49,011 nt of DNA from a virus (UHGV-1353889), one strand, 5' to 3'; counted from the first letter of the stretch, positions 23,439 through 49,011 are shown. Made by a program: numbers and translations. The notes: a model not told the origin generated them from the letters alone.

Positions 23439-23528
23439 TTAACCCATAACGTGCAATGGCTGTCTTTATGAGGCCTGGCACCCTATTGCCTTCCGATGGG
23501 CTGAACATCGAGTAAACAGGGGTAACAA

Positions 23529-24422: not shown

Positions 24423-24440
24423 CCTATCGGAGCATTAAGC

Positions 24441-26366: not shown

Positions 26367-26375
26367 GGTGAATAA

Positions 26376-28495: not shown

Positions 28496-28950
28496 TGATT
28501 ACATTCAAACCAACGCGAAACATCGACCTGATAGAAGCCGTAGGAAATCACCCTGACATTATCGCTGGTAGCAACAACGGTGATGGATACGACTACAAAC
28601 CTGAATGCCGTTACTTTGAGGTGAACGTGCACGGGCAGTTCGGCGGAATTGTTTACTATCAGGAGATTCAGCCGCTAACCTTTGATTGCCACGCCATGTA
28701 CCTGCCAGAGATTCGTGGATTCAGCAAGGAAATCGGGCTGGCGTTCTGGCGATACATTCTGACTAACACCACCGTTCAGTGCGTCACATCGTTCGCCGCA
28801 CGCAAATTCCGCCACGGGCAGATTTACTGCGCAATGATTGGCCTTAAGCGTGTAGGAACCATCAAGAAATACTTCAAAGGCGTGGATGACGTGACTTTTT
28901 ACAGCGCCACACGCGAAGAACTAATCGACTTCCTGAATCACGGGAGATAG
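28495..28950 (+). CDS. Tail/ejection-associated protein (gp14-like)
   Basis: 151 aa, synteny. Confidence 0.4.
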   Translation: MITFKPTRNIDLIEAVGNHPDIIAGSNNGDGYDYKPECRYFEVNVHGQFGGIVYYQEIQPLTFDCHAMYLPEIRGFSKEIGLAFWRYILTNTTVQCVTSFAARKFRHGQIYCAMIGLKRVGTIKKYFKGVDDVTFYSATREELIDFLNHGR

Positions 28951-28952
28951 CC

Positions 28953-29645: not shown

Positions 29646-29655
29646 GGGGTAATCA

Positions 29656-31005: not shown

Positions 31006-33113
31006 GTTTACCAGAGGGGTTTGTTCTGGATGAACAGCCTGATAACTCACAGCTTCCTGATGGCTTTGTGCTTGATGCACAACCAGAACAGCAGCAATCT
31101 CCTTTGGTTTCACTAGAGGAAAATTCCAGACAGGAAAATGTTGTTAATAATGCTAACGGCTTCGACCGTTTTATGTATGGCGTTCTCAGTGGATTGATGG
31201 ATGTTGGTAAAGGTGTTGGCCTGTTTCAGGACATGACACCAGAAGAGCAAGCCGCAATTCAGTCTCTACAGCAGAAGTTAGCGGCAAAACCATCAACCGC
31301 ACAAGATGTTGGTGAGTTCGTTGGACAAGCAGCGCCATTTGTTAGTGGTGGTGGGATTATTTCTCAGGTTCCGAAAGGGGCGGCAAGGCTGGCTGCCGCC
31401 GCAGGGCTTGGTGCTGGAGAAGGGGCTATTGTAGCCAATGGAACAAATAGCGATGTTGCTTCCGGCGCTGCTATTGGCGCTGTGGCTGGCCCTGTAGCCG
31501 AGATTGTTGGTCCAGCGCTTGGGAAGATTGCAGGAAAAATTAAAAATAGTGCCGGAGATATTTATCGCTCATCCGTAGGGATGGGTAGTAAATCATCTAA
31601 AGCAACGTTAAAGAAAGCTGCTGGCGCAATGGACAATAAATTTATCGGCGGGCAACGAGCTATTCAAGATTTCGCCGATGAAGTTAATCCTGATTTTAAC
31701 GCGATAAATGCTATTCGTGAGCTAGAACTGGAAAATTATGCCACTCCAGGCATGATCTCTAATAATCCTGCTGTCAGGGCTCTTGATAATGCAGTGGCAA
31801 GTCTCCCTGGAACAGAGATTAGTGAGGCGCATAAGCGTTTTATTACTGAATTAGGAAGAAAAGCTGATGAAATGATAACTTCATTTGGGGGAAGCCTTGA
31901 TAAGCAACTGGTTTCTGACAGGCTTGCAGATAATTTTGATAAAACCATTTCATCATTACAAAATCAGTCAGATAACATCTACAACAAAATTGCCGAAAAG
32001 GTTCCTGTAAGAGACCGGATTGAGGCAACTAATACATTGAATTTTTTAGAGGATTTTGCTGATGACATAGGTGGAATTGATGAATTATCTCCAATAATGA
32101 AGCGGACATTGAACCGACTTGATCCAAACACCTTGCCAACGTATGGGCGTTTAGATCTCGCTAGAAAGCAGGTTGGACAAGCTATTGGCAAAGGCTCTGG
32201 TCCATTCAAGGATGAAGAAACAGGTGTTCTTAAAAAGTTATATGCAGCCATAACAGATGACCAACAGGCTGTCGCAGAAAAATATGGCGCAGGGGAATTA
32301 TGGACGCTTGGTAAGGAGTTGGTAAAAAAACGAAAATCCATTGAAGATGATGCTGTAACCGTCTTGGGTAGAAAACTTCAGCAATCAGCAATTCCAAAAG
32401 TTGAAAGTGCTGTTGTTAATATGGCAAAAGGAAACGGTGGCGACTTTAGGCAATTAATGAAGTCGATTCCAAAGGATATGCGGCAGGAAGTTGCGCTCAC
32501 CTCAATGAATAAAGCATTTACCAGCTATGCCAAATCACCTGGTCAGCAATTAGGAGTTGATGGATTTGTAAAATGGTATAACGGAATGTCACGCAATGGG
32601 GCCAATATGAAGGCTCTCCGTGATGCTATTGGCACAGATGCATCAAAGCGCCTTGATACGATTTATCAAGCAGCTAAGGCTATGAATAGACTCAATACTG
32701 GTAAGCAGTATGCTAGTAGTCTTGTGGATCAGCAAGTTAATAACTTTCTGAAAGAAAAGGGTAGTCTCGCAAAAATTTATGGAATAGCCTCAAAAGCTGC
32801 TGCGGCGGAAGGTATTACAAGCTTATCTGGTCTCCCTGGTGTAGGTGCAACAGGGGTGATAACGTCTGCATTGATGTCAGGGAAAACAAGCAGGATAAAG
32901 GCTGCTGATGCTCTGCTATCTTCTCCTGAGTTTAAATCAATGCTATTTCGCCTGCAAAACGCACCAGTAGACAGAGCAGAAGTGAGACGCGCAATAGAAA
33001 GGAAACTGATGCAATCTGGGGCATTTAAGAGATGGGAGAAAACCTTATCAACAGATGAAGCAAAAACCATTGCCCGCACGGGGATTATTACATGGCTCGC
33101 TAGTGACAGTTAG
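30990..33113 (+). CDS. Ejection protein, gp16-like
   Basis: 707 aa, last gene of ejection cassette. Confidence 0.5.
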
Positions 33114-33337
33114 TCAACTTTGGTTATTTTGCCTTCTTTTTCTTGATGAACTTTGCATCCATCATCTTTTGATAGCCAAACTAAAAACTTTAAAACCTTA
33201 AACACAAGTACGGCTACTGCAATGAAAGCACCAATCGAAATTATTGCTAGTGAAATTATTTGCATTGGTGCTTTTAATGCAGGGAAAATAGTGTAAATGA
33301 TCGCGAAAACAGTAATTATGAGGAACCATCGCTTCAC
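33110..33337 (-). CDS. Small two-helix membrane protein (sieA-position accessory gene)
   Basis: 75 aa with two hydrophobic helices; divergent from the Panacea-like gene. Confidence 0.4.
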   Translation of the reverse strand: MKRWFLIITVFAIIYTIFPALKAPMQIISLAIISIGAFIAVAVLVFKVLKFLVWLSKDDGCKVHQEKEGKITKVD

Positions 33338-33705
33338 ACCAACCTCCTTAGTTTTGAGCAGGATACCAGATGATACTTTATTGGTGGAGTGGTGTGTGAA
33401 AACGTGTCAACGACAAACCATCCACAACTTGGACGAATGATTTAGCAAAAAGTGCTATTTTTGGTGTTTGGTGTCATAGAAAAGTGAATAGCTCACTTTT
33501 CAACATTGCATGAAACTTGCAGGAAATGTGACATTACCTTATAGGTAACTTCGGCGAAAATGCAGTAAATGTGAAACGTAATGGTTTAAACATGTCGCTA
33601 AAGTGGTTGTAAGTTAGCCTCCGAAGGATTGCTGATAGCTTTGTTATAGTATTAAATGACATTTGACATAGTTGGATACTTAGCTGTGGCTATCAAGATG
33701 GAGGT

Positions 33706-34155
33706 GTGTTCATGCTTACTTGTTTTGATGTCGCCGACTACTTCCTGTCGCGGTGTGACGAGGATAGCGGTGACACAATCTCTAATTTAAAATTACAAAA
33801 GCTTGTTTACTATGCTCAGGGTTTTTCATTGGCGTTGCTTGGCGAGCCTCTTTTTCAGAATAAGATGGAAGCTTGGATGCATGGCCCTGTTGTCCCTGAG
33901 CTTTATCGCCGTTATAAACAATATGGTAATGGCGCTATCCCTTCTCCAGAGTCTTTTGATGCTGAAAAATTCAGCGAAGAACAGTTAGAGCTATTAGAAG
34001 AAGTCTGGGATGTTTTTGGGCAATTTTCTGCCTGGAAACTGAGGAACATGACACACGAAGAGTCACCATGGAGATCAAACTATATTGAGGGTGTTGGTGG
34101 TTCTGAAATTAGCTCTAAGGAGATGGCAGAGTACTTTGCAACTCGGATTAACTAA
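33706..34155 (+). CDS. Panacea (DUF4065/COG3600)-like domain protein, putative antitoxin/adaptor
   Basis: 149 aa; NLKLQKLVYYAQG ... EAWMHGPVVPELY matches my recollection of the DUF4065 signature. Confidence 0.6.
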   Translation: MFMLTCFDVADYFLSRCDEDSGDTISNLKLQKLVYYAQGFSLALLGEPLFQNKMEAWMHGPVVPELYRRYKQYGNGAIPSPESFDAEKFSEEQLELLEEVWDVFGQFSAWKLRNMTHEESPWRSNYIEGVGGSEISSKEMAEYFATRIN

Positions 34156-34159
34156 CGAG

Positions 34160-34579
34160 ATGGCAAGAAAATCTAAAAGGATTATCCCCCCTGCTGAATC
34201 TACAGGTAAGTTAAAGTTAGGGCCGCAGTCAGGGGGGAATTCAGATCAAAAGAAACCGAAGTTTTCATTCTGTTACATCCAAAGCTCTCACTGCATAACG
34301 AAATGCCAAAAAGATGAGAAAGCTGGCTTAGCTGATAAATTATACAGATTAAGTCAACTAACATGGGCAGAGATTAAGCAGCAAGGTAGGCATAAGCTTG
34401 GATTTGAGAAGATTGCAAGGGGTGCAATTAAAGCAGGTATCCCCAGTCATATAACGGAAGACGTAGATCATTTCTTGGCTTTTAGATTTGATGATTTGAA
34501 AGCCATGGTTGGTTATCGTCTTGGATCGACATTTTTTGTTATATGGCTTGATAGAGAGTTCAACCTATACAAGCACTAA
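34160..34579 (+). CDS. Uncharacterized 139-aa partner of the Panacea-like gene (candidate toxin/effector)
   Basis: ATG 5 nt after upstream stop; basic disordered N-terminus, C-terminal beta-rich segment YRLGSTFFVIWLD; terminator follows. Confidence 0.5.
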   Translation: MARKSKRIIPPAESTGKLKLGPQSGGNSDQKKPKFSFCYIQSSHCITKCQKDEKAGLADKLYRLSQLTWAEIKQQGRHKLGFEKIARGAIKAGIPSHITEDVDHFLAFRFDDLKAMVGYRLGSTFFVIWLDREFNLYKH

Positions 34580-34582
34580 TAA

Positions 34583-34607
34583 AACCCACCGTCAGGTGGG
34601 TTTTTTA
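34583..34607. terminator. Bidirectional intrinsic terminator
   Basis: Hairpin AACCCACCGTCAGGTGGGTT flanked by A-run upstream and T-run downstream. Confidence 0.65.
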
Positions 34608-34631
34608 TAAGGAGTAATCATGATTTACCCA

Positions 34632-35168
34632 TCAAACAACCCACCAGTTTGCCTGATTGGATGCCAGCCTTGCAGTTTTTATGGAATTAATTATGCCATG
34701 CTCAAGAGCCTTGTTAGCATCCAAAATGGTCGAGTCTGCTATCAGGGATGCCCACCTAATATGGGTTCCGATGTCGATATTGAACGTCTCAACGAAGCGA
34801 TCAAGATCGTTATCGAGGCATTTCCCGTACTCTCTCAGTCTGGCATGGTCGGCGGCTGGGGTGGCAAAGCCCCATAATAGAGGATGTAACAGGAATCTTG
34901 ATAATGGGTTTGCGAAACGTTCTGAGCCAGCCAGGAAAACGATATTAGCTATGGATTCAACATTGCTTATGTTGTGAGTTCTAACGGTAACAGGGAGTGA
35001 CTTAAGAAAGTTATACGCAGTAAAACCAGCGGCAGTTTCCCCTCCCTGACTTGATATATGGATATTTAATTCAGTTGCGCCTTGAGATAATGCGGTGAGA
35101 CAGTGGTTCTGAAGTTGCCCAACAGTGGCGGTGTTAACGGGGCATAAGAAATGAATTGTGTGCAGCAT
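34632..35168 (-). CDS. ClpP-like (S14-family fold) serine peptidase homologue
   Basis: 178 aa; ISSQGGETAAG parallels ClpP INSPGGVITAG; candidate triad Ser (VESIA), His (LLHPL), Asp (ILDAN); start overlaps mnt stop (TAATG). Confidence 0.6.
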   Translation of the reverse strand: MLHTIHFLCPVNTATVGQLQNHCLTALSQGATELNIHISSQGGETAAGFTAYNFLKSLPVTVRTHNISNVESIANIVFLAGSERFANPLSRFLLHPLLWGFATPAADHARLREYGKCLDNDLDRFVETFNIDIGTHIRWASLIADSTILDANKALEHGIINSIKTARLASNQANWWVV

Positions 35169-35416
35169 TATTTATCATCCTTACCATACATGGTTTTCAG
35201 CGTCTCCAGCAGCGCCTCTTTGAATTTGTCAGCTTCTTGCTGAGCAAATGACTCAACTGACTTTGGCGACCTATCTTCATCAATCGCGGCTTGCAAAATC
35301 ATGACGATCTCGGAGTTAACAGAGCGACCATTTTTTGATGCTCTAACAGCAAGAGCCTCGCGTAAAGATTCAGGGATTCTTACCGTAGTTGGAGAAATTG
35401 ACACACCCTTTGCCAT
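35168..35416 (-). CDS. mnt: Mnt-like repressor (ribbon-helix-helix)
   Basis: 82 aa; NGRSVNSEI RHH motif, same length as P22 Mnt. Confidence 0.7.
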   Translation of the reverse strand: MAKGVSISPTTVRIPESLREALAVRASKNGRSVNSEIVMILQAAIDEDRSPKSVESFAQQEADKFKEALLETLKTMYGKDDK

Positions 35417-35530
35417 AACACACCTTTGGTATTCAATTTGATATCAAAGTGTATGCAAAAAAATTTTGACTAGATATACTCACTTTGCTATCTTTTGTAT
35501 TCGAAAAGAGTTGTTTGTGTGGAGGGTAAC
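35417..35530. promoter_or_regulatory. Divergent immI promoter/operator region (mnt versus arc-ant)
   Basis: Palindrome TTTGATATCAAA and further inverted repeats between divergent RHH repressor genes. Confidence 0.45.
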
Positions 35531-35683
35531 ATGGAGAAAGAAATAAGTAAGATTTTGGTAAGGATGCCGCAGTCGTTAAAGGATGCTATCGGTAGCAGGG
35601 CAAAGGAAGAGTGCAGGTCGTTTAACTCAGAGGTTATCAAGCGCCTGATAGACAGCCTGAAGAAAGAGGGGGTGGCGATATGA
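35531..35683 (+). CDS. arc: Arc-like repressor (ribbon-helix-helix)
   Basis: 50 aa from ATG at 35531 with GGAGGG RBS; CRSFNSEVIKRLIDSLKKEGV parallels P22 Arc. Confidence 0.7.
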   Translation: MEKEISKILVRMPQSLKDAIGSRAKEECRSFNSEVIKRLIDSLKKEGVAI

Positions 35684-35862
35684 ATAAAGAAGATGGCTTT
35701 AAGTGCTCCTTCTGCGGAAAGCCTCAGCATGAATGTGCAATGTTGATTCGCGCTAAAGCAGAGATATTTATCTGTAGTGGTTGTGTATCTCTTTGCGTTG
35801 AAGCGATGGGGAAAGAGTTAAATTCTAGAAAAACAATGTTAGATGTGAACATAAAACAGTGA
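35680..35862 (+). CDS. ClpX N-terminal zinc-binding-domain-like protein (ZBD only)
   Basis: 60 aa; [10 protein letters not shown] ... [10 protein letters not shown] parallels ClpX ZBD CSFCGKSQHE ... YICDECVDLC; ATGA overlap with arc stop. Confidence 0.6.
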
Positions 35863-35924
35863 AGCCCCAACTGCGGGAACAGTCAGGGCTTCGGTTGTCA
35901 GTAAATCCGTGGAGAAAAACCAAC

Positions 35925-36827
35925 ATGAATAGTATAGCAATTTTAGAAGCAGTGAACACCTCTTACGTACCATTCAACGGTCAGCAAATTATCACCGCCA
36001 TGGCTGCCGGAGTTGCATATGTTGCGATGAAGCCAATCGTTGAAAACCTCGGAATGAGCTGGGGTACTCAGCAACAAAAACTTATGAAACAACTAGATAA
36101 GTTCAAATGTATTCATATGAATATGGTTGCTGCTGATGGAAAGCTTCGTAAGCTACTCTGCCTTCCTTTGAAGAAGTTAAATGGATGGCTGTTCAGCATC
36201 AACCCTGAGAAAGTTCGTGCTGACATCCGTGATAAACTGATTCAGTACCAGGAAGAATGCTTTACTGTACTGCATGACTACTGGACAAAGGGAAAGGCAG
36301 AAAATGCACGTAAGAAAACATCTGTTGATGACAGGACTCCGCTTCGTGATGCTGTAAATATGCTAGTCAGCAAAAAGCATCTAATGTACCCAGAAGCTTA
36401 TGCAATGATTCATCAGCGTTTCAATGTGGAAAGTATTGAAGAGCTTGATGCATCTCAGATACCGCAAGCCGTAGAGTACATCCACAGGGTAGTGCTTGAA
36501 GGTGAATTTATCGGCAAACAAGAGAAGAAAACCAACGAGTTTTCTGCAAAAGAAGCAAACAGCCTTGTATGGTTATGGGATTATGCCAACCGTTCACAGG
36601 CATTATTCCGCGAACTGTATCCGGCATTAAAACAAATTCAATCGAACTATTCCGGCAGATGCTACGACTACGGTCATGAGTTCTCGTATGTTATCGGAAT
36701 GGCGAGGGACGTTTTAATCAATCACTCACGAGATGTTGATATCAATGAGCCAGACGGACCAACGAATCTTTCCGCATGGATGAGACTTAAGAATAAAGAA
36801 TTACCTCCTTCAATACATAACTACTGA
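35925..36827 (+). CDS. ant: Antirepressor Ant
   Basis: 300 aa from ATG at 35925 (GGAGA RBS), same length as P22 Ant; follows arc in immI arrangement. Confidence 0.65.
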
Positions 36828-36844
36828 CAGATAACCAACGCAAC

Positions 36845-36870
36845 GACCCAGCTTCGGCTGGGTTTTTTTA
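36845..36870 (+). terminator. Intrinsic terminator after ant
   Basis: Hairpin CCCAGCTTCGGCTGGG followed by T7. Confidence 0.7.
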
Positions 36871-37005
36871 TGCCCAAAATTCACCGCAGCAACTAAGCGG
36901 CGATTGCCTTCATGGATAGCACTACGAAATTTTCGTAGTTCAAAAACCAAACAAATACCAACCGTAGCCATGCTGCGGCGATTCCTTGTATCTGGAGCAA
37001 ATTAA

Positions 37006-39951
37006 ATGACAGACATTACAGCCAATGTTGTAGTGAGTATGCCTTCGCAACTCTTCACTATGGCGCGTTCTTTTAAAGCAGTTGCCAATGGCAAAATTTA
37101 TATCGGTCAGGTTGACACTGACCCGGTAAATCCTGAAAACCAGATTCAGGTTTATGTAGAGAACGAAGACGGCTCGCACGTTCCTGTTTCGCAACCAATC
37201 ATCATTAACGCTGCTGGATATCCGGTATATAACGGACAGATTGCCAAATTCGTAACCGTGCAAGGCCATTCTATGGCTGTTTATGATGCGTATGGTACAC
37301 AGCAGTTCTATTTTCCTAATGTGCTGAAGTATGATCCTGATCAGTTACGGCAGCAATTAGAAGACCCAGATGGAGCGAATAAATACCCAAAACTTCAGAT
37401 AGCAAGATGGAGAGACAGTTATGATGTAAGAGGTTGGGGGGCTATTGGTGATGGTGTTCATGATGATACATCAGCTCTATCAGAATTACTTTCTGTTGCA
37501 ACAGGTGGTGAAAAGATAGATGGGCGAGGGCTTACTTTTAAAGTATCAACTCTTCCAGATGTCAGTCGATTTAAAAATGCTCGTTTTTTATTTGAGAGAA
37601 TACCGGGTCAGCCTCTTTTTTATGCTTCTGAAGATTTTATCCAGGGAGAGTTATTTAAAATTACAGATACACCGTGGTACAACGCCTGGACGCAGGATAA
37701 AACGTTTGTATATGACAATGTCATCTATGCGCCTTTTATGGCTGGAGACCGCCATGGTGTAAATAACCTCCATGTTGCATGGGTTCGCTCAGGAGATGAC
37801 GGGAAGACCTGGACAACGCCGGAATGGCTTACAGATTTACATGAAAACTATCCCACAGTTAACTATCACTGCATGAGTATGGGGGTTGTCAGAAATCGCC
37901 TTTTTGCTGTAATTGAGACGCGGACCGTGAGCGGAAATAAACTGCAGGTTGCAGAGTTGTGGGATCGCCCAATGAGTCGCAGCCTTCGCGTTTATGGTGG
38001 TATAACGAAAGCAGCAAATCAGCAAGTCGCTTATATTCGCATTACTGATCACGGATTATTTGCTGGTGATTTTGTCAACTTCTCAAACTCTGGTGTTACA
38101 GGTGTTACCGGGAATATGACGGTGACTACTGTTATTGATAAAAATACTTTTACAGTTACGACGCAAAATACCCAGGATGTGGATCAGAATAACGAGGGTA
38201 GATACTGGAGTTTTGGTACATCATTTCACTCGTCACCATGGAGAAAAACCAGTCTTGGAACTATTCCTTCTTTTGTTGACGGAAGCACTCCTGTTACTGA
38301 GATTCACAGTTTTGCGACGATTAGCGATAACAGTTTTGCTGTTGGCTACCATAATGGTGATATTGATCCACGCGAGCTTGGGATACTCTATTTCTCTGAT
38401 GCTTTCGGTTCTCCTGGTAGCTTTGTTCGCAGACGCATACCTGTAGAATATGAGGCGAATGCATCTGAGCCATGTGTAAAATATTATGATGGCATTCTGT
38501 ATCTGACGACCAGGGGGACATTAAGTACTCAACCCGGTAGTTCATTGCACAGAAGCTCTGATTTAGGTACATCATGGAATTCTCTTCGCTTCCCAAATAA
38601 TGTTCATCACTCAAACCTTCCTTTTGCCAAAGTTGGCGATGAGCTGATTATTTTTGGCAGTGAGCGCGCATTTGGTGAGTGGGAAGGAGGAGAACCTGAT
38701 AACCGTTATGCAGGAAATTATCCAAGAACATTTATGACCAGAGTTAACGTCAATGAGTGGAGTCTGGATAATGTAGAGTGGGTTAATGTTACTGATCAGA
38801 TTTATCAGGGCGGAATAGTTAACTCTGCGGTTGGTGTTGGTTCAGTTTGTATCAAAGACAACTGGCTGTACTACATTTTCGGTGGGGAAGACTTTCTAAA
38901 CCCATGGAGCATAGGGGATAACAACAGAAAATATCCTTATGTTCACGATGGTCACCCGGCTGATTTGTATTGTTTCAGGGTGAAAATTAAACAGGAAGAA
39001 TTTGTTTCAAGGGATTTTGTCTACGGAGCCACTCCTAACAGAACGCTTCCTACTTTTATGTCGACGTCAGGCGTGAGGACGGTTCCTGTACCCGTTGATT
39101 TCACAGATGATGTTGCCGTCCAGTCACTGACTGTCCATGCAGGTACATCAGGAAAAGTTCGCGCGGAAGTCAAACTTGAGGGTAATTACGCCATTATTGC
39201 GAAGAAAGTACCGTCTGATGATGTTACCGCTCAGAGATTAATCGTTAGCGGCGGTGAAACAACGTCTTCAGCAGATGGTGCAATGATAACGTTGCATGGT
39301 TCCGGAAGCAGTACTCCACGTCGCGCGGTATATAACGCACTCGAACATCTTTTTGAGAACGGAGATGTTAAACCTTATCTTGATAATGTAAATGCTCTTG
39401 GTGGTCCGGGAAACAGGTTCTCGACAGTTTATCTTGGCTCCAATCCTGTGGTTACCAGTGACGGAACATTAAAGACAGAGCCGGTCTCTCCTGACGAAGC
39501 ATTGCTGGATGCCTGGGGTGACGTCAGGTATATCGCTTATAAATGGCTGAACGCTGTCGCTATAAAGGGGGAAGAAGGGGCGAGGATACATCATGGTGTA
39601 ATCGCGCAGCAACTTCGTGATGTTCTTATTTCTCACGGACTCATGGAAGAAGAAAGCACAACATGCCGCTATGCGTTTCTTTGCTATGACGATTATCCCG
39701 CAGTATATGATGACGTCATTACTGGCCAAAGGGAAATGCCGCTGACTGATAATGACGGGAGCATCATTGTTGATGAGGATGATAATCCAGTGATGGTAAT
39801 GGAAGACATCATTGAGCGCGTTGAAATAACGCCAGCAGGATCTAGATGGGGGGTCAGACCTGATCTCTTATTCTATATCGAGGCGGCATGGCAGCGCAGA
39901 GAAATAGAAAGAATAAAAGCTAGGTTAGACTTAATAGAAGGGAAGCACTAA
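37006..39951 (+). CDS. Tailspike: P22 gp9-type head-binding domain fused to endosialidase-like Asp-box domain and C-terminal intramolecular-chaperone domain
   Basis: 981 aa; N-terminus matches P22 tailspike head-binding domain; Asp-boxes SGDDGKTW and SSDLGTSW; C-terminal self-cleaving chaperone-like module. Confidence 0.75.
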
Positions 39952-40240
39952 ATGTTTCGTTGGCGTCAAAAATATGAACTGCTCACATAAAGAAGTAAGC
40001 ACATTGGCAAAAAACATTGACGTCAACGAAATTAAATATAAAACATCATGCAGACATATTACCAATATTAATATAAGGTAATAAAAATATAATTTACAAA
40101 AAAGCCCGTTGGAAGCGACGGGCATTAACCGCGGTAATGGATAAATTATTAATGTTTTTAGATTGTGAACGATATCATATTGTGCGGAAGTAGTGAAGTA
40201 ACCATGTAAAATGATTGTTTCATAGCCTATGAGACACACA

Positions 40241-40360
40241 AGGCTTTGTGCTCTTCGATAGTTGTTAAGGCGGATCACTCTACCTTCTCATCAATCCAGT
40301 CCGCCCACCACTGCATCATTTCTCTGCGCTTATCGAGATACTGAGCATGGTTGTAAATTC
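40241..40360. repeat. Right copy of 120-bp direct repeat (integrase 3'-end fragment)
   Basis: 118/120 identical to 1-120; encodes last ~28 codons of integrase with an in-frame stop just upstream. Confidence 0.8.
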
Positions 40361-40429
40361 AACTAACCCAGTCCGTTGACAAAAAATTAGCGCAAGAGGA
40401 CAAAAAATCACCTTGCGCTAATGCTCTGC

Positions 40430-40660
40430 CTCAGGTCACTAATACTATCTAAGTAGTTGATTCATAGTGACTGGATATGTTGTGTTTTGTAGTATTATGC
40501 AGTCTATTATTTAGACTAAACCCTTCATAACATATTGATATTTACAGTGTTTTCTGTTTCTCGTTCAGCTTTTTTATACTAAGTTGGCATTATAAAAAAG
40601 CATTGCTTATCAATTTGTTGCAACGAACAGGTCACTATCAGTCAAAATAAAATCATTATT
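40430..40660. other. Lambda-type attachment site with P-arm-like, core (GCTTTTTTATACTAA at 40568-40582) and P'-arm sequences, i.e. attP-like rather than attL
   Basis: Core 15-mer exact; right flank matches lambda P' arm into int; left flank resembles lambda P arm (CAGGTCACTAATAC ... TTCTCGTTCAGC). Confidence 0.8.
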
Positions 40661-41726
40661 TGATTTCAATTTTGTCCCACTCCCTGCCTCTGTCATCACG
40701 ATACTGTGATGCCATGGTGTCCGACTTATGCCCGAGAAGATGTTGAGCAAACTTATCGCTTATCTGCTTCTCATAGAGTCTTGCAGACAAACTGCGCAAC
40801 TCGTGAAAGGTAGGCGGATCCCCTTCGAAGGAAAGACCTGATGCTTTTCGTGCGCGCATAAAATACCTTGATACTGTGCCGGATGAAAGCGGTTCACGAC
40901 GAGTAGATGCAATTATGGTTTCTCCGCCAAGAATCTCTTTGCATTTATCAAGTGTTTCCTTCATTGATATCCCGAGAGCATCAACATGCAATGCTGTTGG
41001 GATGGCAATTTTTACGCCTGTTTTGCTTTGCTCGACATAAAGATATCCATCTACGATATCAGACCACTTCATTTCGCATAAATCACCAACTCGTTGCCCG
41101 GTAACAACAGCCAGTTCCATTGCAAGTCTTAGCCAATATGGTGATGATTCTGCTGCTTGATAAATTTTCAGGTATTCGTCAGCCGTAAGTCTTGATCTCC
41201 TTACCTCTGATTTTGCTGCGCGAGTGGCAGCGACCGGGTTTGTTGTTATATGGCCTTCAGCTATTGCCTCTCGGAATGCATCGCTCAGTGTTGATCTGAT
41301 TAACTTGGCTGACGCAGCCTTGCCCTCGTCTATGTATCCATTGAGCATTGCCGCAATTTCTTTTGTGGTGATGTCTTCAAGTGGAGCATCAGGCAGACCC
41401 CTCCTTATTGCTTTAATTTTGCTCATGTAATTTATGAGTGTCTTCTGCTTGATTCCTCTGCTGGCGAGGATTTTTTCGTAGCGATCAAGCCATGAATGTA
41501 ACGTAACAGAATTATCACTGTTGATTCTCGCTGTCAGAGGCTTGTGTTTGTGTCCTGAAAATAACTCAATGTTGGCCTGTATAGCTTCAGTGATTGCGAT
41601 TCGCCTGTCTCGGCCTAATCCAAACTCTTTACCCGTCCTTGGGTCCCTGTAGCAGTAATATCCATTGTTTCTTATATAAAGGTTAGGGGGTAAATCCCGG
41701 CGCTCATGACTTCGCCTTCTTCCCAT
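40656..41726 (-). CDS. int: Integrase (lambda Int)
   Basis: 356 aa, near-identical to lambda Int as I recall it. Confidence 0.95.
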   Translation of the reverse strand: MGRRRSHERRDLPPNLYIRNNGYYCYRDPRTGKEFGLGRDRRIAITEAIQANIELFSGHKHKPLTARINSDNSVTLHSWLDRYEKILASRGIKQKTLINYMSKIKAIRRGLPDAPLEDITTKEIAAMLNGYIDEGKAASAKLIRSTLSDAFREAIAEGHITTNPVAATRAAKSEVRRSRLTADEYLKIYQAAESSPYWLRLAMELAVVTGQRVGDLCEMKWSDIVDGYLYVEQSKTGVKIAIPTALHVDALGISMKETLDKCKEILGGETIIASTRREPLSSGTVSRYFMRARKASGLSFEGDPPTFHELRSLSARLYEKQISDKFAQHLLGHKSDTMASQYRDDRGREWDKIEIK

Positions 41727-41922
41727 TTCTGATCCTCTTCAAAAGGCTACCTGTTACTGGTCGATTTAAGTCAACCTTTACCGCTGATTCGTGGAACAGA
41801 TACTCTCTTCCATCCTTAACCGGAGGAGGGAATATCCTGCACTCGCGTACCCATCGACGAACTGTTTCAAGGCTTCTTGGGCGTCGCTGGCGTGCGTTCC
41901 ACTCCTGAAGTGTCAAGTACAT
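41704..41922 (-). CDS. xis: Excisionase (lambda Xis)
   Basis: 72 aa, MYLTLQEWNARQRRPRSLETVRRWVRECRIFPPPVKDGREYLFHESAVKVDLNRP matches lambda Xis. Confidence 0.95.
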   Translation of the reverse strand: MYLTLQEWNARQRRPRSLETVRRWVRECRIFPPPVKDGREYLFHESAVKVDLNRPVTGSLLKRIRNGKKAKS

Positions 41923-41961
41923 CGCAAAGTCTCCGCAATTACACGCAAGAAAAAACCGCCA

Positions 41962-42129
41962 TCAGGCGGTTTGGTGTTCTTTCAGTTCTTCAATTCGAAT
42001 ATTGGTTACGTCTGCATGTGCTATCTGCGGCCACAGCATCCAGTGGTCATAGCAGTCGTTGATGTTCTCCGCTTCGATAACTCTGTTGAATGGCTCTCCA
42101 TTCCATTCACCTGTGACTCGGAAGTGCAT
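41962..42129 (-). CDS. Small hypothetical protein (55 aa)
   Basis: Manual ORF MHFRVTGEWNGEPF ... NIRIEELKEHQTA; its 3' end plus terminator hairpin recurs as a start-less fragment at 1651-1740. Confidence 0.4.
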   Translation of the reverse strand: MHFRVTGEWNGEPFNRVIEAENINDCYDHWMLWPQIAHADVTNIRIEELKEHQTA

Positions 42130-42201
42130 TTATCATCTCCATAAAACAAAACCCGCCGTAGCGAGTTCAGATAAAAGAAATCCCCGCGAGTGCGAGGATT
42201 G

Positions 42202-42486
42202 TTATTTATTGCCGATATTCACCTTTATCGCGAACACCTTTACCGGTTTATCTCCGAAGTGCGGATGTGTGATTGTCTTGATTTCATACCCTTCATACGG
42301 GACGTCTATTCTGCGACTGGAGTCGTCGCGCTTCGGATATCCCTTTGTGATAATCAGGCGGTCATATTCCCGGAACATGATTCGCTTATTCCAGTAGTCA
42401 TTACACAGGCGATACTCTTCCGTCTTCTCTCCGCGAATCATGGCATCGAAGTATTCACCTTTAACGGCAAGTTGCAGGTTAGCCAC
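42202..42486 (-). CDS. ASCH/PUA-like (DUF3850-like) domain protein, tentative
   Basis: Probable GTG start at 42484-42486 with AAGGAG RBS; GEYFDAMIRGEKTEE resembles ASCH-domain N-terminal motif; track ORF 42202..42570 over-extended. Confidence 0.4.
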   Translation of the reverse strand: MANLQLAVKGEYFDAMIRGEKTEEYRLCNDYWNKRIMFREYDRLIITKGYPKRDDSSRRIDVPYEGYEIKTITHPHFGDKPVKVFAIKVNIGNK

Positions 42487-42985
42487 AGTTAACTCCTTGC
42501 TGTGTGGCGTCGAGTAATAAATCCCACAACCGCTGAGAGCAATTTCCGCATGTACAGCGTTGACCCACAACGTTTATCGCGTTGCTGATTTCCGGCGTTA
42601 CCTGTTTAGGAACCATAACCCAACCATCCGGAGTTACCGGATAGTTGCCATCCAGCGCGTTCAACTTGTAAGTCTGGCTTACAGGTTTGACACCGTGAAG
42701 CATGGCGGCGCGGTGACACCAGATAATCCAGCCCAGCGCCATATCCCATGCCATGTATTCTCTATCACCATTTTTTGCCCTGCGGCGATCTACAGATTCC
42801 CCGAAACGCTTCTCCATAAATAATTCATAGGCTGCCCGTTCATCCGATACTGCTGCCAGCGATGCCAGAGCAATTCGTGCCAGTTCTTCCGCTTCTTCTG
42901 CTGGCAGTACAACGTTGCTACCCGGCCCGTATGTTTCGCGCCACTGCTTGATTGTCAGCAGTCGCTCTTTGGTAATAGTGGTCAT
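42479..42985 (-). CDS. Early-left accessory protein, DUF551-like C-terminus
   Basis: 168 aa; shares MTTITKER N-terminus and YPVTPDGW motif with 2050..2664. Confidence 0.5.
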   Translation of the reverse strand: MTTITKERLLTIKQWRETYGPGSNVVLPAEEAEELARIALASLAAVSDERAAYELFMEKRFGESVDRRRAKNGDREYMAWDMALGWIIWCHRAAMLHGVKPVSQTYKLNALDGNYPVTPDGWVMVPKQVTPEISNAINVVGQRCTCGNCSQRLWDLLLDATQQGVNCG

Positions 42986-43191
42986 TTGTTAATCCTCAAA
43001 ACTTTATGCCCAGGCGCAAAAGCACGCGTTTTGTCTTTGCTTATTCGCCAGCCATCCTTGCGCGCCTCTTTTGCACAGCCAGCCCATGACGTACCTATAT
43101 ACTCACCGAAGTCTGGCACTGGATATACACCTTCCGTACACTGGCGGCAGTCACAATAGAGATGCATTGTGTAACTTGCAGCGATAGCCAT
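42982..43191 (-). CDS. Small Cys-rich hypothetical protein
   Basis: 69 aa from ATG at 43189-43191 (AAGGAG RBS, overlaps upstream stop); CDCRQC motif. Confidence 0.35.
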   Translation of the reverse strand: MAIAASYTMHLYCDCRQCTEGVYPVPDFGEYIGTSWAGCAKEARKDGWRISKDKTRAFAPGHKVLRINK

Positions 43192-43192
43192 A

Positions 43193-43807
43193 TCACTCTC
43201 CTTTGATGCGAATGCCAGGGGCGCGTGGCACATTAACTTCCACGATGCGCACTGTTGGTTTGTACATCTCAATCGCTGTCAGCCAGTCAGCTCCTGTCAT
43301 GCGCTTTTCCGCATCGCCATTAGTCCACTGAACCGGTACACCAATAGCCTTCATCGCGGTTTCTATTTCCCCGGCGATGGCGCTTTTCCCGCAACCAGTA
43401 AAACCAGAAACAACGACAAGAACTTCACCTTGGGCTGGTTTTATTTCCCGAGCTTCCAGTTCTGCAATGCGCTGTTTTGCGGCATCAAGTTCAATCGATA
43501 ATTTTTCCAACTGCTCTTTATGCTTCTTGTATTCCTGATATGCGTGCCAGGACTGACCTTTGCGCACACTATCAGTAATATCAGTAATCTGTTCTGGTGT
43601 TAGAGTGGTCAGTGGCTGTGCTGGGAAAATAAGCACTTTCCCGGCATCCCAATCAAAACCAGCGTGAATTGACTGAACCTCAACTGAGGGTGTTGAACCA
43701 ATGCTGCCAGGCGAATGAACAACGATCGTTACATCCATATCGCGACGATGGCTGTGGTTGTTGGACAAAATACGATTCACCAACTCAGAAAATTTGGAAA
43801 ATTTCAT
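43193..43807 (-). CDS. Ea22-like early protein (full length)
   Basis: 204 aa; coiled-coil KQRIAELEAREI and C-terminal GIRIKGE as in 2860..3111. Confidence 0.5.
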   Translation of the reverse strand: MKFSKFSELVNRILSNNHSHRRDMDVTIVVHSPGSIGSTPSVEVQSIHAGFDWDAGKVLIFPAQPLTTLTPEQITDITDSVRKGQSWHAYQEYKKHKEQLEKLSIELDAAKQRIAELEAREIKPAQGEVLVVVSGFTGCGKSAIAGEIETAMKAIGVPVQWTNGDAEKRMTGADWLTAIEMYKPTVRIVEVNVPRAPGIRIKGE

Positions 43808-44094
43808 GCTGATTCCCCTTTCTCTGCTCTCTCCTGTCGGAACATCACTATCATCAGGTCGCCTTTTGTCGCTATCCTGGCTGTTGTACCTGGTTCAATG
43901 CGGCTAAGCTCAAATGCGTCATAGAACGCTTCTAATGCCTTCTGGCGTAGTTCCTGTTTGCGCCGTTTTTTCCACTGTTTTAGGAAAATGGAACCCAGCC
44001 ATCGCCATGTACGGGACATGATGTAAAGCCAACCGAGAAGTGCCAGACCGGTATTTAGGAGCGTATCGATCGTTATTGTCGTGTCGATATTCAC
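43804..44094 (-). CDS. Hypothetical protein with N-terminal hydrophobic helix
   Basis: 96-aa ORF. Confidence 0.35.
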
Positions 44095-44258
44095 TGGTTG
44101 CCTCCTTTGCGCAACATCGCATTCAGATATTTGTTTTGATTCACTGATGGAAAAGAATTTCTCTTAAGCAATTCCTCTCTCGATGGCATTGGCTTTACGC
44201 GTTGGCGAATAATCATTTCTGACGGAAGAATGCCGGGATTGTATGCAAGTCCTCTCAT
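44091..44258 (-). CDS. Small conserved protein (55 aa), copy of 3541..3708
   Basis: Manual translation; one substitution relative to element 1 copy. Confidence 0.45.
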
Positions 44259-44536
44259 GATTTACTCTCCACGAACTGGTCAATAGCCATGCTAAGTGAT
44301 ACACCTAAAGTCTCGATATGCTGCTGAATATCCTGTAGCGTCTGCGCCTGAGATAACAGGATTTCACGGTTGCATAACTCTTTGACCAGATGCTCAAACT
44401 TGCTGTAATAACCGATACGGCTTAGTGTTTCTTTCCCTGCATTCTCACCTTCTTTGATAATTCCTCTTTCATTAAGAATCAGGTCGTGTTTTGTTCCAGT
44501 AATAACGTATTTACCGAGGTCGATGTTTAGCTTCAT
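44255..44536 (-). CDS. Hypothetical protein (insertion relative to element 1)
   Basis: 93-aa ORF present only in element 2 between the 55-aa and 104-aa genes. Confidence 0.4.
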
Positions 44537-44552
44537 TGTTAATTACTCCATG

Positions 44553-44867
44553 TTAATTTATTTGTATGCCTGCTCTTTTTTCATCGAGTTTTTTTAGCTT
44601 GTATCGCATAGCTCTTACTGAATAAATTGAGCGGCAGGTTGCAATTGCTATTTCTTCTGCGGAGAACTTACCGAAAAGTGATACTTCGGCTCTTGTCCAG
44701 CGTCTTCCACGAAGTCGGCTAACAATGTCAGCGCCAATCCTTGTTGCTTTCGCCATTACTGCTTTTTCAGTCCTTTCCAGTTTTTCAGCGATAACTTCAA
44801 CTGGCATTGTCGCCGCTACTTCGCGTAAGAAATCGACTTCCCATTTCTCCCAAGGAGTCTTTTTCAT
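44553..44867 (-). CDS. Conserved phage protein, putative DNA-binding (copy of 3725..4039)
   Basis: 104 aa, 3 substitutions near C-terminus relative to element 1. Confidence 0.45.
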   Translation of the reverse strand: MKKTPWEKWEVDFLREVAATMPVEVIAEKLERTEKAVMAKATRIGADIVSRLRGRRWTRAEVSLFGKFSAEEIAIATCRSIYSVRAMRYKLKKLDEKRAGIQIN

Positions 44868-44878
44868 AGGCGATACCG

Positions 44879-45367
44879 TTATTTGATAAGAAGTGAAGGT
44901 TTCCCAACTTTGAGTTGAGCACCGGGGATATTTATTCCTGCTTTTAGTTGGTGTTTGATTGCCAGTTTGTCGGCTTTAATTGTCGTTTCGAACTCAACGT
45001 ATTCAGGAGGAAGGGCGCTTGAGTCGATGATTTCTACAGTTTCTGACGGTTTGCGGATTGTTACCTGGTGAATACCTGCTCGAATCTTTTTCTTTCCAAC
45101 CATTTCAAGCGATGACGCTATATACGTCATAATGCTATCAATCTTATTTTGAATTACTGCTGCTCTTTCATTCAGTGACTTTGCCTCTTCCTTGAGGCGT
45201 TCAGCATAACCAGACTCATTTTTAATGATGGCAAGAAGTTGCTCTATTTTATCGGTAAATTCTCCTTCCATGCCTTCTATTGTGTCAGCAATCATCTCTG
45301 GTTCTAAATCTGAATCCATCAATTTTGCGTATTCATTGGCAATTTCATACAGTTTGCTCACTGGCAA
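44879..45367 (-). CDS. Gp157-like protein (copy)
   Basis: Identical to 4051..4539. Confidence 0.5.
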   Translation of the reverse strand: MPVSKLYEIANEYAKLMDSDLEPEMIADTIEGMEGEFTDKIEQLLAIIKNESGYAERLKEEAKSLNERAAVIQNKIDSIMTYIASSLEMVGKKKIRAGIHQVTIRKPSETVEIIDSSALPPEYVEFETTIKADKLAIKHQLKAGINIPGAQLKVGKPSLLIK

Positions 45368-46256
45368 CCTCCAGTTTCGCTTTGCATTCTATGTAAATGG
45401 CTTGTACGTTCTGCTGCAATTTCATTCCAGATGTCAGGCGATATGCTTCTGCAAAATATCGCTTCAAATCATCCATGTTTTCTGCCTGAGCCATTTCATC
45501 ACAAAGAAGTTGTGCTTTATCCGTTATTTCCTGCTGGCGTTTCCGTTCATCTTCGCGGATATCTTCCTCTGATTTGTGCGGCATAACTGGTTCAGTCCAC
45601 ACACCTTCTTCTTCGTTTAGTACGTGAATAGCACTATCAAGACGTGATGCCTTAGGCCAATACTTGCTTGCACGCTTTACGACCGTCTTTCGCGCCATCT
45701 CATTCCAGTGATTTACCCATGGTCCTTTATCGCTGAATGCCGCCTTGCTTGTTTTCCTTACAGCCTCAATTTCAGCCAGACTCATCTCTTCCGTTAGATA
45801 ATCACCTGCTGGCGTCTTAACTGTGCAGTAAACGCCAACGATATCACCACGATCACCGAAGGCGTTGTATTTATGGGTTGGTGCTTTATCAAGCCCGTTT
45901 GACTCATAGGTATCGTTAGCATGAACAAGTTTTGCCTGACCCCATGAGATAACACCAGACTCCATTGCAATATGGAGCAATCCCATATAGCTGATATCAA
46001 GGCAAACCATGCCGTCGCGCGGAACCAGATAAGCCAGTTTGCTAGCCGGGTTTAAGGTGATGCCGATCGCCGCAACATTGATGATGGCGTTCTGTGCGCT
46101 GGTTGGATTTGCCAGTGCCGTTTTAGCCAGGTAATCATTTTTCTGGAAATACTGAATTGCAAACTGGCTTTCCTTAGCCCATGTCACCGTCTGTTCAGTC
46201 AATGCTCCGCAGAATAACTGCTCCTGCTGTTTAACGAATTCAACGATATTGCTCAT
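45345..46256 (-). CDS. RecT-family single-strand annealing recombinase (copy)
   Basis: Identical to 4517..5428. Confidence 0.75.
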   Translation of the reverse strand: MSNIVEFVKQQEQLFCGALTEQTVTWAKESQFAIQYFQKNDYLAKTALANPTSAQNAIINVAAIGITLNPASKLAYLVPRDGMVCLDISYMGLLHIAMESGVISWGQAKLVHANDTYESNGLDKAPTHKYNAFGDRGDIVGVYCTVKTPAGDYLTEEMSLAEIEAVRKTSKAAFSDKGPWVNHWNEMARKTVVKRASKYWPKASRLDSAIHVLNEEEGVWTEPVMPHKSEEDIREDERKRQQEITDKAQLLCDEMAQAENMDDLKRYFAEAYRLTSGMKLQQNVQAIYIECKAKLEVASEQTV

Positions 46257-46564
46257 GCTGCTTCTCCATAAATGTGTCTGCGTTTGAATATTGCGAAGGC
46301 ATATTCAGCCTTAACTCTTTCGGTTATTGCATCCCAGAACCATTCAGCGGCTTTTTCCTGATAGTTACAATCATCATCTTCCAGCCAGTCGATAGCGTCC
46401 TTAGTGTGTTCACCTGGTTTATATGAGCGAAGCATTTCGCTTATTGGGTCGCAACGTTTGCAGAGGCGATCAACTTCACTGTTGATTCGCTCGTAATCTT
46501 CATCAGTAAAACTTGCGATTATTTGCGATATTTCACGCTTATCATTCAGAGTCAGAATCATCAT
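46253..46564 (-). CDS. Hypothetical early protein (copy of 5425..5736)
   Basis: 103 aa with one substitution; track ORF 46253..46672 is an artificial read-through across the N gap. Confidence 0.45.
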   Translation of the reverse strand: MMILTLNDKREISQIIASFTDEDYERINSEVDRLCKRCDPISEMLRSYKPGEHTKDAIDWLEDDDCNYQEKAAEWFWDAITERVKAEYAFAIFKRRHIYGEAA

Positions 46565-46574
46565 CTTTCTCCTG

Positions 46575-46603
46575 NNNNNNNNNNNNNNNNNNNNNNNNNN
46601 NNN
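46575..46603. other. Assembly gap (29 N)
   Basis: Run of N characters. Confidence 1.
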
Positions 46604-46946
46604 TTTGTTCATCTGACGAATGAATTCTTCGTCTGACCAGTTATCTGTAAAACTCATTTCCTGCGATACCATGGAAGGTTGATAGCTGATTTCATCGCTT
46701 TATTTGCTTCAAGCCACATTTTTGAATCACCAATAAATCGGGCTATTACTGCTTTGTTTTGTGCAGCACGAAGCATCTGGTGATTAATGGCTATTTCATT
46801 GCGCATAATAAGACCTCAACTCTTTTCCATCCGTCACGTAATTTACGGGTGATTCGTTCAAGTAAAGATTCATTTAGTTGGAAGGCACCCATGCGAGCGC
46901 CTCCCGCGATTGCGTAAATCATGGGTGGTTCCTTATGTTGGTTTTA

Positions 46947-47915
46947 TTAGTAGGTTATTTTTGTTGCGAATACTTCGCCTTTTACGATGGCTGTTATGAT
47001 ATTTTTAGCAACATCTTCTGATGCGCCAACCTTGATAAGGTCAGCAAGTATTTTGTTATTTACGTCTTTCCGGTGAGCCTTATCCTTTGCTCTACGCTCT
47101 TCTTCGTCCTTGATTCTTTTTTCTTCTGCTATTCTGGCTTGCTCTTTTGCTTCAGCCTCGCGACGGATTCGTTCAGCCTCCTCCTGTGCTTTTCTGCGTT
47201 CTACTTCAATTGCTGCCTGCTTTTCTCTTTCAGCTCGTTCTGCTGCCTCTTTTGCTTCGCGCTGTGCTCGTTGCTCGGCTTCAATGCGTTCACGCTCTGC
47301 ACGCTCCGCTGCGGCCTTAGCTTCTGCTTCTCTCCTTGCTGCTGCTTCAATGTCGGCTTTTGCCTTTGCTTCGGCTTCTGCTCTGGCTTTCTCTTCAGCT
47401 TCTCTTTTTAAGCGGTCTTCATGCTCTCGCTTTTCCTGCTCCTCTTTGAGTCTTGCCTCTTCTCTTTGTCGGTCAAATTCGCGATCCATCAAAATCGCTA
47501 TTTCATGGTCAGACTCAATTTGCTTTGCGAGAGCTTCAGCTGCTGCCTTAGCTTCTTCTTCGGCTTTAATCCGCGCCTGTTCTTCCTCATAATCAGTAAG
47601 AGGCTGGCGTGCCTTGGCTTTCAGCTCATCAAGTCGATCACGCACTGTTTTGCGGTTGGCATCAATTAGCTTTGGAATTTCCTTCAGTTCAGCAACAAGG
47701 TCTTTGCCAAGACCATCGAGATATGTTTTCGTCTGCGCAACTTTATACGCCAGAGAAGCGATCTCCTTTCTGCCCTTTGCCGTTGTGATATCAGGCACAA
47801 AGGACATAACTTCACTTTCAACCTTTTGAAGGATTTCTTCAATCTGGTCGGCAGACTGAAATACAGTCATTGCATTTGCTTTTTCAATAACAACTAAATC
47901 TGTTACTTCACTCAT
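46947..47915 (-). CDS. Hypothetical protein with long Glu/Ala/Arg/Lys-rich coiled-coil region
   Basis: 322 aa; globular N-terminal ~120 aa then ~170 aa EAR-rich repeat; plus-strand ORFs in this span are low-complexity artefacts. Confidence 0.5.
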   Translation of the reverse strand: MSEVTDLVVIEKANAMTVFQSADQIEEILQKVESEVMSFVPDITTAKGRKEIASLAYKVAQTKTYLDGLGKDLVAELKEIPKLIDANRKTVRDRLDELKAKARQPLTDYEEEQARIKAEEEAKAAAEALAKQIESDHEIAILMDREFDRQREEARLKEEQEKREHEDRLKREAEEKARAEAEAKAKADIEAAARREAEAKAAAERAERERIEAEQRAQREAKEAAERAEREKQAAIEVERRKAQEEAERIRREAEAKEQARIAEEKRIKDEEERRAKDKAHRKDVNNKILADLIKVGASEDVAKNIITAIVKGEVFATKITY

Positions 47916-47949
47916 ATATCCTCCTTCGTTGTATTCTTTAAAAACGCTC

Positions 47950-48318
47950 TCAGGCGGCTTTGATAGTCATATCATCTGAATCAAATATTCCTGATGTATC
48001 GATATCGGTAATTCTTATTCCTTCGCTACCATCCATTGGAGGCCATCCTTCCTGACCATTTCCATCATTCCAGTCGAACTCACACACAACACCATATGCA
48101 TTTAAGTCGCTTGGAATTGCTATAAGCAGAGCATGTTGCGCCAGCATGATTAATACAGCATTTAATACAGAGCCGTGTTTATTGAGTCGGTATTCAGAGT
48201 CTGACCAGAAATTATTAATCTGGTGAAGTTTTTCCTCTGTCATTACGTCATGGTCGATTTCAATTTCTATTGATGCTTTCCAGTCGTAATCAATGATGTA
48301 TTTTTTGATGTTTGACAT
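47950..48318 (-). CDS. Acidic hypothetical protein
   Basis: 122 aa, Asp/Glu-rich C-terminal half. Confidence 0.45.
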   Translation of the reverse strand: MSNIKKYIIDYDWKASIEIEIDHDVMTEEKLHQINNFWSDSEYRLNKHGSVLNAVLIMLAQHALLIAIPSDLNAYGVVCEFDWNDGNGQEGWPPMDGSEGIRITDIDTSGIFDSDDMTIKAA

Positions 48319-48468
48319 CTATTCATATCCTCATAGATAAAAAATCGCCCTCACACTGGAGGGCAAAGAAGATTTCCAATAATCAGAACAAGTCGGCTCC
48401 TGTTTAGTTACGAGCGACATTGCTCCGTGTATTCACTCGTTGGAATGAATACACAGTGCTTATTCGTA

Positions 48469-48939
48469 CTAATAAAACACCCAATTTTCTGTTTCTTGGT
48501 TGTGTCCAAAGTTATATTCAATATCTGGTGTTGATGTATCAATATTCTTCATCCCATCAACAAGAGTTGATACAACAGCCAAATCTTGTTTGATTCTCAT
48601 CAAATGGTATTTCTTCCGGCGCAATAAACTTTCAATGGCAAGTTTCTTCGTCGGGAATGCAAAAGATCTTTCTGCATTTTTTGCTACTTTCTTAATTGCA
48701 TATCTATTTCTCCTTTGTTTCCATTCCTGTAACCACAGATTTGGTGCTGGTTTAAAATTAACAATCCAATGCGCAGGAACCAACCATGCATAATGCTCTG
48801 TCTGATGAAAAGCTATATATTGAAGTGCGAATATTTTGATTCCATCTTCTTCAACTGTCGCTTGGAATCTCCAGAAAACAGGCATTCCATCATGTTCAGT
48901 TTCTGATTCAGGAAAAGGTACGCTCCATGATTTTGTCAT
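48469..48939 (-). CDS. Hypothetical protein (moron inserted within tL-like hairpin cluster)
   Basis: 156 aa; flanked by sequence that is contiguous in element 1 (6061-6221), insertion bounded by CAGTGC. Confidence 0.5.
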   Translation of the reverse strand: MTKSWSVPFPESETEHDGMPVFWRFQATVEEDGIKIFALQYIAFHQTEHYAWLVPAHWIVNFKPAPNLWLQEWKQRRNRYAIKKVAKNAERSFAFPTKKLAIESLLRRKKYHLMRIKQDLAVVSTLVDGMKNIDTSTPDIEYNFGHNQETENWVFY

Positions 48940-49011
48940 ATCTCACCTCAAATAATTCAGTGCAGTGTTTATTCTGTTGTTTATGCCAAAAGAAGGCCGA
49001 CTATGCGGCCT

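Follow-up and report, generated by a model that had tools for sequence, protein, structure and literature searches.

A lambda-type attP in the unrecombined arrangement beside the fossil of a probably displaced integrase in a CUS-3-like coliphage scaffold

Lambda-type attP sites and mosaic joints are well known, as are P22-like phages whose integration modules have been swapped, and the region described here is a known kind of element in its ordinary state. Phages Huey and Louie (PQ850609, PQ850616; PMC12243541) are free circular P22-like genomes in which the tailspike gene is followed by an accessory gene, a partial integrase fossil, a P-O-P' site, a lambda-type int and xis. Lambda and phage 434 have the same kind of cassette in the b region of a lambda-like siphovirus, whereas here it lies after the tailspike gene of a P22-like podovirus. 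CUS-3 and the K-12 prophage KplE1 (CPS-53) are integrated at argW through an IntS-type module, which the present DNA also contains but in the attP (excised) configuration. In the complete genome of ExPEC XM (NZ_CP025328.1), tailspike, (acyltransferase), fossil, P-O-P' and int follow one another at 98.9% identity to our sequence, within a host-flanked tandem array whose two units each have the lambda-type module; here there are two different modules and no host DNA.

We analysed a stretch of viral DNA of 49,011 nt (UHGV-1353889), referred to as the window, whose features are collected in Table 1. The reading that we favour, with a probability of roughly 0.78, is that 40364-41922 is a complete, unrecombined lambda/434-type integration cassette (sib/tI, P arm, 15-bp core, P' arm, int and xis) in a CUS-3-like phage, that it adjoins the fossil of a displaced integrase, and that the scaffold strings together two alternative arms (A and C) and a shared body (B) as an A-B-C walk through an assembly graph.

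Table 1. Features of the window and their positions, counted from its first nucleotide.
Feature	Position	Strand	Remarks
Arm A: IntS/argW-type integration module and early-left (pL-side) genes of CUS-3-like phage	1..6221	-	alternative to arm C
Body B: immunity, replication, lysis, head, ejection and K1 endosialidase tailspike genes	6222..40240	+	Lederbergvirus; either arm can join
Arm C: lambda-type integration module and second version of early-left genes	40241..49011	-	contains scaffold gap
Scaffold start	1-54		exact copy at 40241-40294
Left of N gap	46521-46574		exact copy at 5693-5746
Scaffold gap, 29 N	46575..46603		over short 129-nt node common to arms A and C
Right of N gap	46604-46657		exact copy at 5768-5821
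Scaffold end	48958-49011		exact copy at 6168-6221
IntS/P4-type tyrosine integrase, full length	35..1228 (GTG start); 35-1192 from ATG, 385 aa	-	Pfam Arm-DNA-bind_3, Phage_int_M, Phage_integrase
Unrecombined argW-type attP core ATGGTGTCCCCTGCAG	1353..1368	-	between int and torI
torI-type excisionase (recombination directionality factor)	1440..1642	-	97% DNA identity to K-12 torI region; torI in annotation of matching genomes
SocA_Panacea-domain protein	33712-34155
ClpP-family protease	34632-35168	-
ClpX zinc-finger ORF	35680-35862		Arc also in accessory cluster
Tailspike	37006-39951
IntS-type integrase 3'-end fossil (pseudogene)	40241..40363	-	last 27 codons (in-frame stop before), stop codon, 34 nt downstream
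sib retroregulator and tI terminator hairpin of lambda-type int transcript	40364..40440	-	aligns with lambda and 434
P arm of attP	40418..40567	+	P1 40433-40443, P2 40464-40472, IHF-like sites
attP core (C-O-C') GCTTTTTTATACTAA	40568..40582	+	identical to lambda 27724-27738; includes 7-bp overlap region
P' arm	40583..40662	+	H' 40594-40622, P'1-P'3 40629-40659; overlaps int 3' end
Lambda-type integrase	40656..41726	-	Pfam Arm-DNA-bind_1, Phage_integrase
Lambda-type excisionase Xis	41704..41922	-	Pfam Exc, E = 3.9e-41

The core, GCTTTTTTATACTAA, has one exact match in the window and is contained in none of 100 shuffled sequences, and core and P' arm together are identical to lambda at 95 of 95 nt. 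Over the 150 nt of the P arm, 124 positions are shared with lambda, 130 with phage 434 and all 150 with the attR of an E. coli IAI39 prophage; P1, P2 and the sib/tI hairpin are conserved relative to lambda, whereas the central P arm (Xis/Fis/H2 region) differs from it at 26/150 and is closer to 434. The int product agrees with lambda Int at 353 of 356 residues (3 differences), xis is present, both genes read towards attP, and sib/tI lies beyond the P arm. The hairpin at 40390-40418, followed by a U run, has a folding energy of −29.1 kcal/mol (z = −4.05), and we take its function to be that of established lambda biology. An earlier note on this DNA had reported the exact core, the P and P' arms and lambda int in the P-O-P' order of free phage DNA; all of these elements are confirmed, with core, arm sites and int in place, and the site at 40418-40662 is a true unrecombined P-O-P' attP in the free-phage-DNA arrangement.

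The target of this attP would be the gal-bio attB, judging from prophages with exactly the same P arm. In IAI39 the identical 150-nt P arm and core are joined to ybhB-bioA, recombined with attB, and the identical Int protein adjoins ybhC at the canonical attB in many genomes. Among the matches listed, about 20 complete genomes match from the tailspike to just beyond the core and the match ends there. By comparison with lambda, and with support from these genomes, Int and IHF would recombine attP with attB between ybhC (gal side) and ybhB/bioA. In the P-O-P' state, as in infecting or excised phage, sib is contiguous with int, and by analogy with lambda this contiguity would destabilise pL transcripts of int (retroregulation).

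Immediately to the left of sib lies a direct repeat of the first nucleotides of the window. The two copies had been described as 120 bp long (1-120 and 40241-40360) with 2 mismatches, which is correct (the mismatches are at positions 55 and 59), and the repeat extends to 123 bp (1-123 and 40241-40363; 97.6% identity, BLAST E = 3.7e-54). It had also been identified as the 3' end of a P4-type integrase gene of which it would hold some 85 bp, and we find 89 nt of the integrase ORF, stop included, of P4/IntS type by Pfam, and 34 nt downstream. The copy at 40241 translates as S*IYNHAQYLDKRREMMQWWADWIDEKVE*. The repeat does not contain the core of its own integrase, which lies 1.2 kb away at 1353-1368; host DNA outside both copies, with joints at their boundaries, was looked for and the left copy stands at the scaffold edge in a window with no host gene. 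The repeat is thus no att duplication or prophage end, and its copy at 40241-40363 is a non-functional fossil. The label of a prophage right end given to this position does not hold: CUS-3 is colinear across 40240/40241 into its int with no junction there, and in CUS-3 and many argW prophages tailspike, (acyltransferase), the sequence of window 40033-40358 and the full int run unbroken. The left edge of the repeat is simply the start of the scaffold and not a recombination joint, whereas the right edge, 123/40363, is an old mosaic joint at which IntS-type int passes into lambda/434 sib-attP sequence.

The same fossil stands to the left of sib in phage 434 (85% identity, with the match starting at window 40239) and beside attP in Huey and Louie, as well as in the attR of many E. 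coli prophages at the gal-bio attB; RefSeq lists it in IAI39 and ExPEC XM as a partial pseudogene of 84 bp. In Huey it is partial, its match beginning at window 40282; lambda matches only from window 40377, and the fossil is absent there apart from its first 12 nt or so (AGGCTTTGTGCT). Since the integrase fragment occurs in phage 434, Huey, IAI39 and many other genomes without a second phage alongside, it is part of the lambda/434-type att cassette; its likeness to 1-123 comes from the full IntS-type gene that the window contains as well. We regard the int family of CUS-3 and KplE1 as its source. In an ancestor, a lambda/434-type sib-attP-int-xis cassette would have replaced most of an argW-targeting integrase gene of the IntS/KplE1/CUS-3 type, and the remnant appears to decay stepwise across CUS-3-like prophages, 434, Huey and lambda; the version in the window is longer and less diverged than those of 434 and lambda. 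An IntS-type integrase fossil beside a 434-type attP is one small new detail, and no mention of an integrase fossil was found in the 434 genome paper (PMC9119081). The annotation of phage 434 places a 49-aa ORF across the fossil; it was considered and is not real here, since its frame is not conserved in the window, where an indel and early stops occur. Directly left of the fossil, CACACAAR-CTTTG-like motifs form a tandem pair in 434 (2477-2514) and lambda, annotated in the 434 record as CII-binding sites, while a single copy (CACACAAGGCTTTGTGCT) is present in the window and CUS-3; 434, lambda, the window and CUS-3 all converge at AGGCTTTGTGCT.

An exact 48-nt pattern across the fossil/sib joint was found at 3 loci in IMG/VR and 8 loci in metagenomes, and at none in the GTDB representative genomes. 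Eight of these 11 loci are P-O-B' attR sites and three have a core that looks HK022-like. In three metagenome contigs (L015, L017 and L018) the tailspike, fossil, sib and P1/P2 are the same as in the window and the remaining P arm and core differ. We take these differing parts to be HK022-like, and if they are, a mosaic breakpoint would lie inside the P arm near window 40497-40513.

The other integration module, at the left end of the window, is of the KplE1/CUS-3 IntS-TorI kind, with an IntS-type integrase, the 16-nt argW core CTGCAGGGGACACCAT and torI across attP. Its 385-aa integrase is identical to a protein that adjoins argW/yfdC in many E. coli genomes, and 1-1368 is 97% identical to CUS-3 int and 96% to K-12 intS. 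In K-12 CPS-53, 1-1368 matches the attL side and 1353-1692 the attR/torI side, so that core and both arms are accounted for, and the overlap of the two matches is the core; it is the 16-nt KplE1 core reported in PMC2951348. No Pfam hit was obtained for the torI-type ORF. The IntS attP is unrecombined, and therefore 1-40240 is a circular permutation of a CUS-3-like genome and not an integrated prophage. Exact-protein lookups of the IntS, 204-aa, 121-aa and BstA proteins returned matches in common prophages only, and some assemblies include small E. coli records of 29.7-39.4 kb that carry intS-torI. A second 16-nt piece of argW (GGAATCGAACCTGCAA, T-arm) is found at 1662-1677, 293 bp from the true core with torI between, and the two pieces together make up the 31-nt 3' end of argW, split by the torI segment. 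The GenBank record of CUS-3 sets its attL and attR 'cores' on the inner argW repeat and therefore omits torI; we reject that position as the crossover site, the KplE1 core being the outer repeat.

The carrier of the lambda-type cassette is, as far as its sequence tells, a K1-specific, CUS-3-like P22-like coliphage (Lederbergvirus). Over 15000-39990, phiv205-1 covers 78% at 96.8% identity and CUS-3 66% at 95.8%, Lederbergvirus DNA matches include CUS-3, phiv205-1 and Kapi1, and Pfam Phage_stabilise, P22_gp7, Inj_translocase, Head_binding and endosialidase domains are found in identical Logan genes, in keeping with a P22-type set of portal, coat, gp4/gp10/gp26, ejection proteins and a tailspike with the P22 head-binding domain. 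Through endosialidase tailspike, spacer and int, CUS-3 is colinear with the end of body B and with arm A. The K1 endosialidase tailspike shares 98.7% identity with its CUS-3 counterpart, and neuO, the phase-variable O-acetyltransferase gene of CUS-3 (843 bp), is missing at 40033-40043. Huey and Louie, by comparison, have a tailspike of the O16/colanic-acid type, a shorter fossil, and a UmuD-like gene in place of the 290 bp of CUS-3-like spacer seen in the window. On the minus strand at 7346-8251, beside a CI-like repressor, is a 301-aa gene with a BstA_C domain (abortive-infection type) that is common in lambdoid prophages; an accessory cluster precedes the antirepressor at 33712-35862 (domains assigned via identical Logan genes), and two phage-borne tRNA genes, tRNA-Ser(GCT) and tRNA-Thr(TGT), lie at 16088-16243.

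The window contains seven exact repeats of at least 54 nt, four of which are exactly 54 nt long and stand each at a sequence edge. At all four edges (the two scaffold ends and either side of the N gap) the 54-mer recurs exactly in the other arm, which is the k−1 overlap signature of a k=55 short-read De Bruijn assembly. Arm C is parallel to arm A with patchy homology of 88-100%, and the Lederbergvirus phages Louie and Huey account for about half of it at 97% identity. Both arms leave body B through one common 54-mer and re-enter it through another, and the scaffold is therefore probably an A, B, C walk around a circular phage graph with a bubble, from arm A through the shared body to arm C. 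The earlier note was right about the N gap and about a duplication, put there at 2.2 kb, which we place at 3705-5821 and 44533-46657 (~2.1 kb). Within it, 1753 bp of the RecT/Gp157 region are repeated exactly (3789-5541 and 44617-46369), in arms that are otherwise about 95-97% alike. This block is either a repeat edge collapsed by the assembler or a very recent exchange; together with an N gap over a 129-nt node it fits reuse of repeat edges by the assembler. The sequence missing from the gap is probably the 21 nt of 5747-5767, the gap length being only an estimate.

Most likely, each arm would close with body B into a circular genome, A+B measuring 40.2 kb and C+B about 42.8 kb, the two being alternatives to each other; within the same view, there may instead be one main phage and a minor variant. 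In both cases the molecules would have been free circles, concatemers or virion DNA. A-B-C would be the order in which a bubble of the assembly graph was traversed, and no actual molecule need have it. The two sizes plausibly suit P22-like genomes, although 42.8 kb comes close to the largest that P22-like headful packaging takes, which counts against our explanation. From the edge geometry only, we infer that body B is collapsed (2x coverage). What is doubtful is the long-range order of IntS arm, shared body and lambda arm, with the A-B adjacency the least certain.

An independent assembly bears on the local order. The exact tailspike protein is present on one contig only in a large public collection, Logan SRR5677845_2205 (20,185 bp), a k=31 assembly, and the part that was fetched is 100% identical to window 27006-41509. 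It passes from the tailspike through fossil, P arm, core and P' arm into int without a break, and therefore the local junction exists in reads. No fork was seen in this contig at the core, where attL and attR would branch, which means that attL and attR forms are not abundant in SRR5677845, and none after the fossil, suggesting that arm A is rare or absent in those reads, with the reservation that the Logan graph clean-up could hide minor branches. The contig ends inside the lambda-type int, at window 41509, which suggests another related int copy in the SRR5677845 reads. Nothing on this read set was found in the literature.

These data also serve to weigh other explanations of the P-O-P' arrangement. 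It could be the internal junction of a chromosomal tandem, i.e. two related P22-like prophages head to tail as in a classical lambda dilysogen, and there are precedents on finished E. coli chromosomes where P22-like units are joined through an intact attP: ExPEC XM has such a tandem at the lambda attB (its second unit is without replication-to-head genes), and GPEC60-33-648 has tailspike, intS, attP and torI contiguous, an IntS-type joint. The window has no array ends, where attL and attR would stand. Against a tandem, host DNA is absent from its 49 kb and all its sequence edges are k−1 graph overlaps. By our reasoning, moreover, no simple Int-mediated or homologous series of insertions yields A-B-C with two intact attP sites and different integrases. 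The unforked core, lacking the attR/attL branch point, probably favours free circular, concatemeric or virion DNA, and we consider a (hetero-)polylysogen improbable. Somewhat less improbable, though still doubtful, is that the sample was one K1-specific P22-like phage population polymorphic for its integration module (IntS/argW versus lambda Int/gal-bio), with the fossil as the homology patch for exchange of cassettes by homologous recombination; the alternative cassettes are indeed bracketed by the 123-bp fossil on one side and by early-left genes on the other (1753-bp block, 54-mer 6168-6221).

A chimeric misjoin at 40241-40700, fusing attR-side reads with the attL side of another prophage across the 15-bp core or the 123-bp repeat, would be in keeping with a short-read scaffold that has an N gap and collapsed repeats, and the distrust of the assembly in the earlier note was justified by the repeat, the gap and the duplication. 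A 15-bp core, however, is far shorter than k, so that P-O-P' k-mers must exist in the reads; the k=31 assembly is identical across the junction, and ExPEC XM has the same contiguous order, as do phages 434 and Huey, in which the fossil is shorter. We thus regard a misjoin at this place as very unlikely. Even harder to sustain is that the 120-bp repeat arose when an IntS-type phage (1-40240) entered what was left of an integrase gene in a resident lambda-like element, although a direct repeat of 123 bp and 97.6% identity does bracket some 40.2 kb and homologous recombination across 123 bp is physically possible. The IntS core is intact, unrecombined and outside the repeat, so that integration into a remnant was not IntS-mediated. 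The proposals of an att duplication and of a prophage within a prophage, the latter raised in the earlier note, are wrong. The left end of the repeat is the scaffold start, its first 54 nt being an exact graph overlap, and the colinearity with CUS-3 across 40240/40241 means that nothing was inserted there. Homologous insertion into the fossil would also leave a full-length int at 40241, where instead a truncated, fossil-type copy is found. This reading is already largely refuted.

With the preferred reading, an unrecombined lambda-type cassette beside an integrase fossil in a graph-walk scaffold, some points bear on how such sequences are read: a direct repeat reaching the edge of a contig is not to be taken for an att site, an intact attP without host flanks signals free or tandem phage DNA (ExPEC XM shows that P-O-P' can also be internal to a tandem array), and exact k−1 overlaps at every sequence edge reveal an assembly-graph walk. 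For the phages themselves, the apparent stepwise decay of the fossil would be the trace of a past insertion of a lambda-type cassette into an argW-type integrase gene. If the sample did contain a polymorphic population, it would be module swapping caught in progress, and not inferred from distant genomes.
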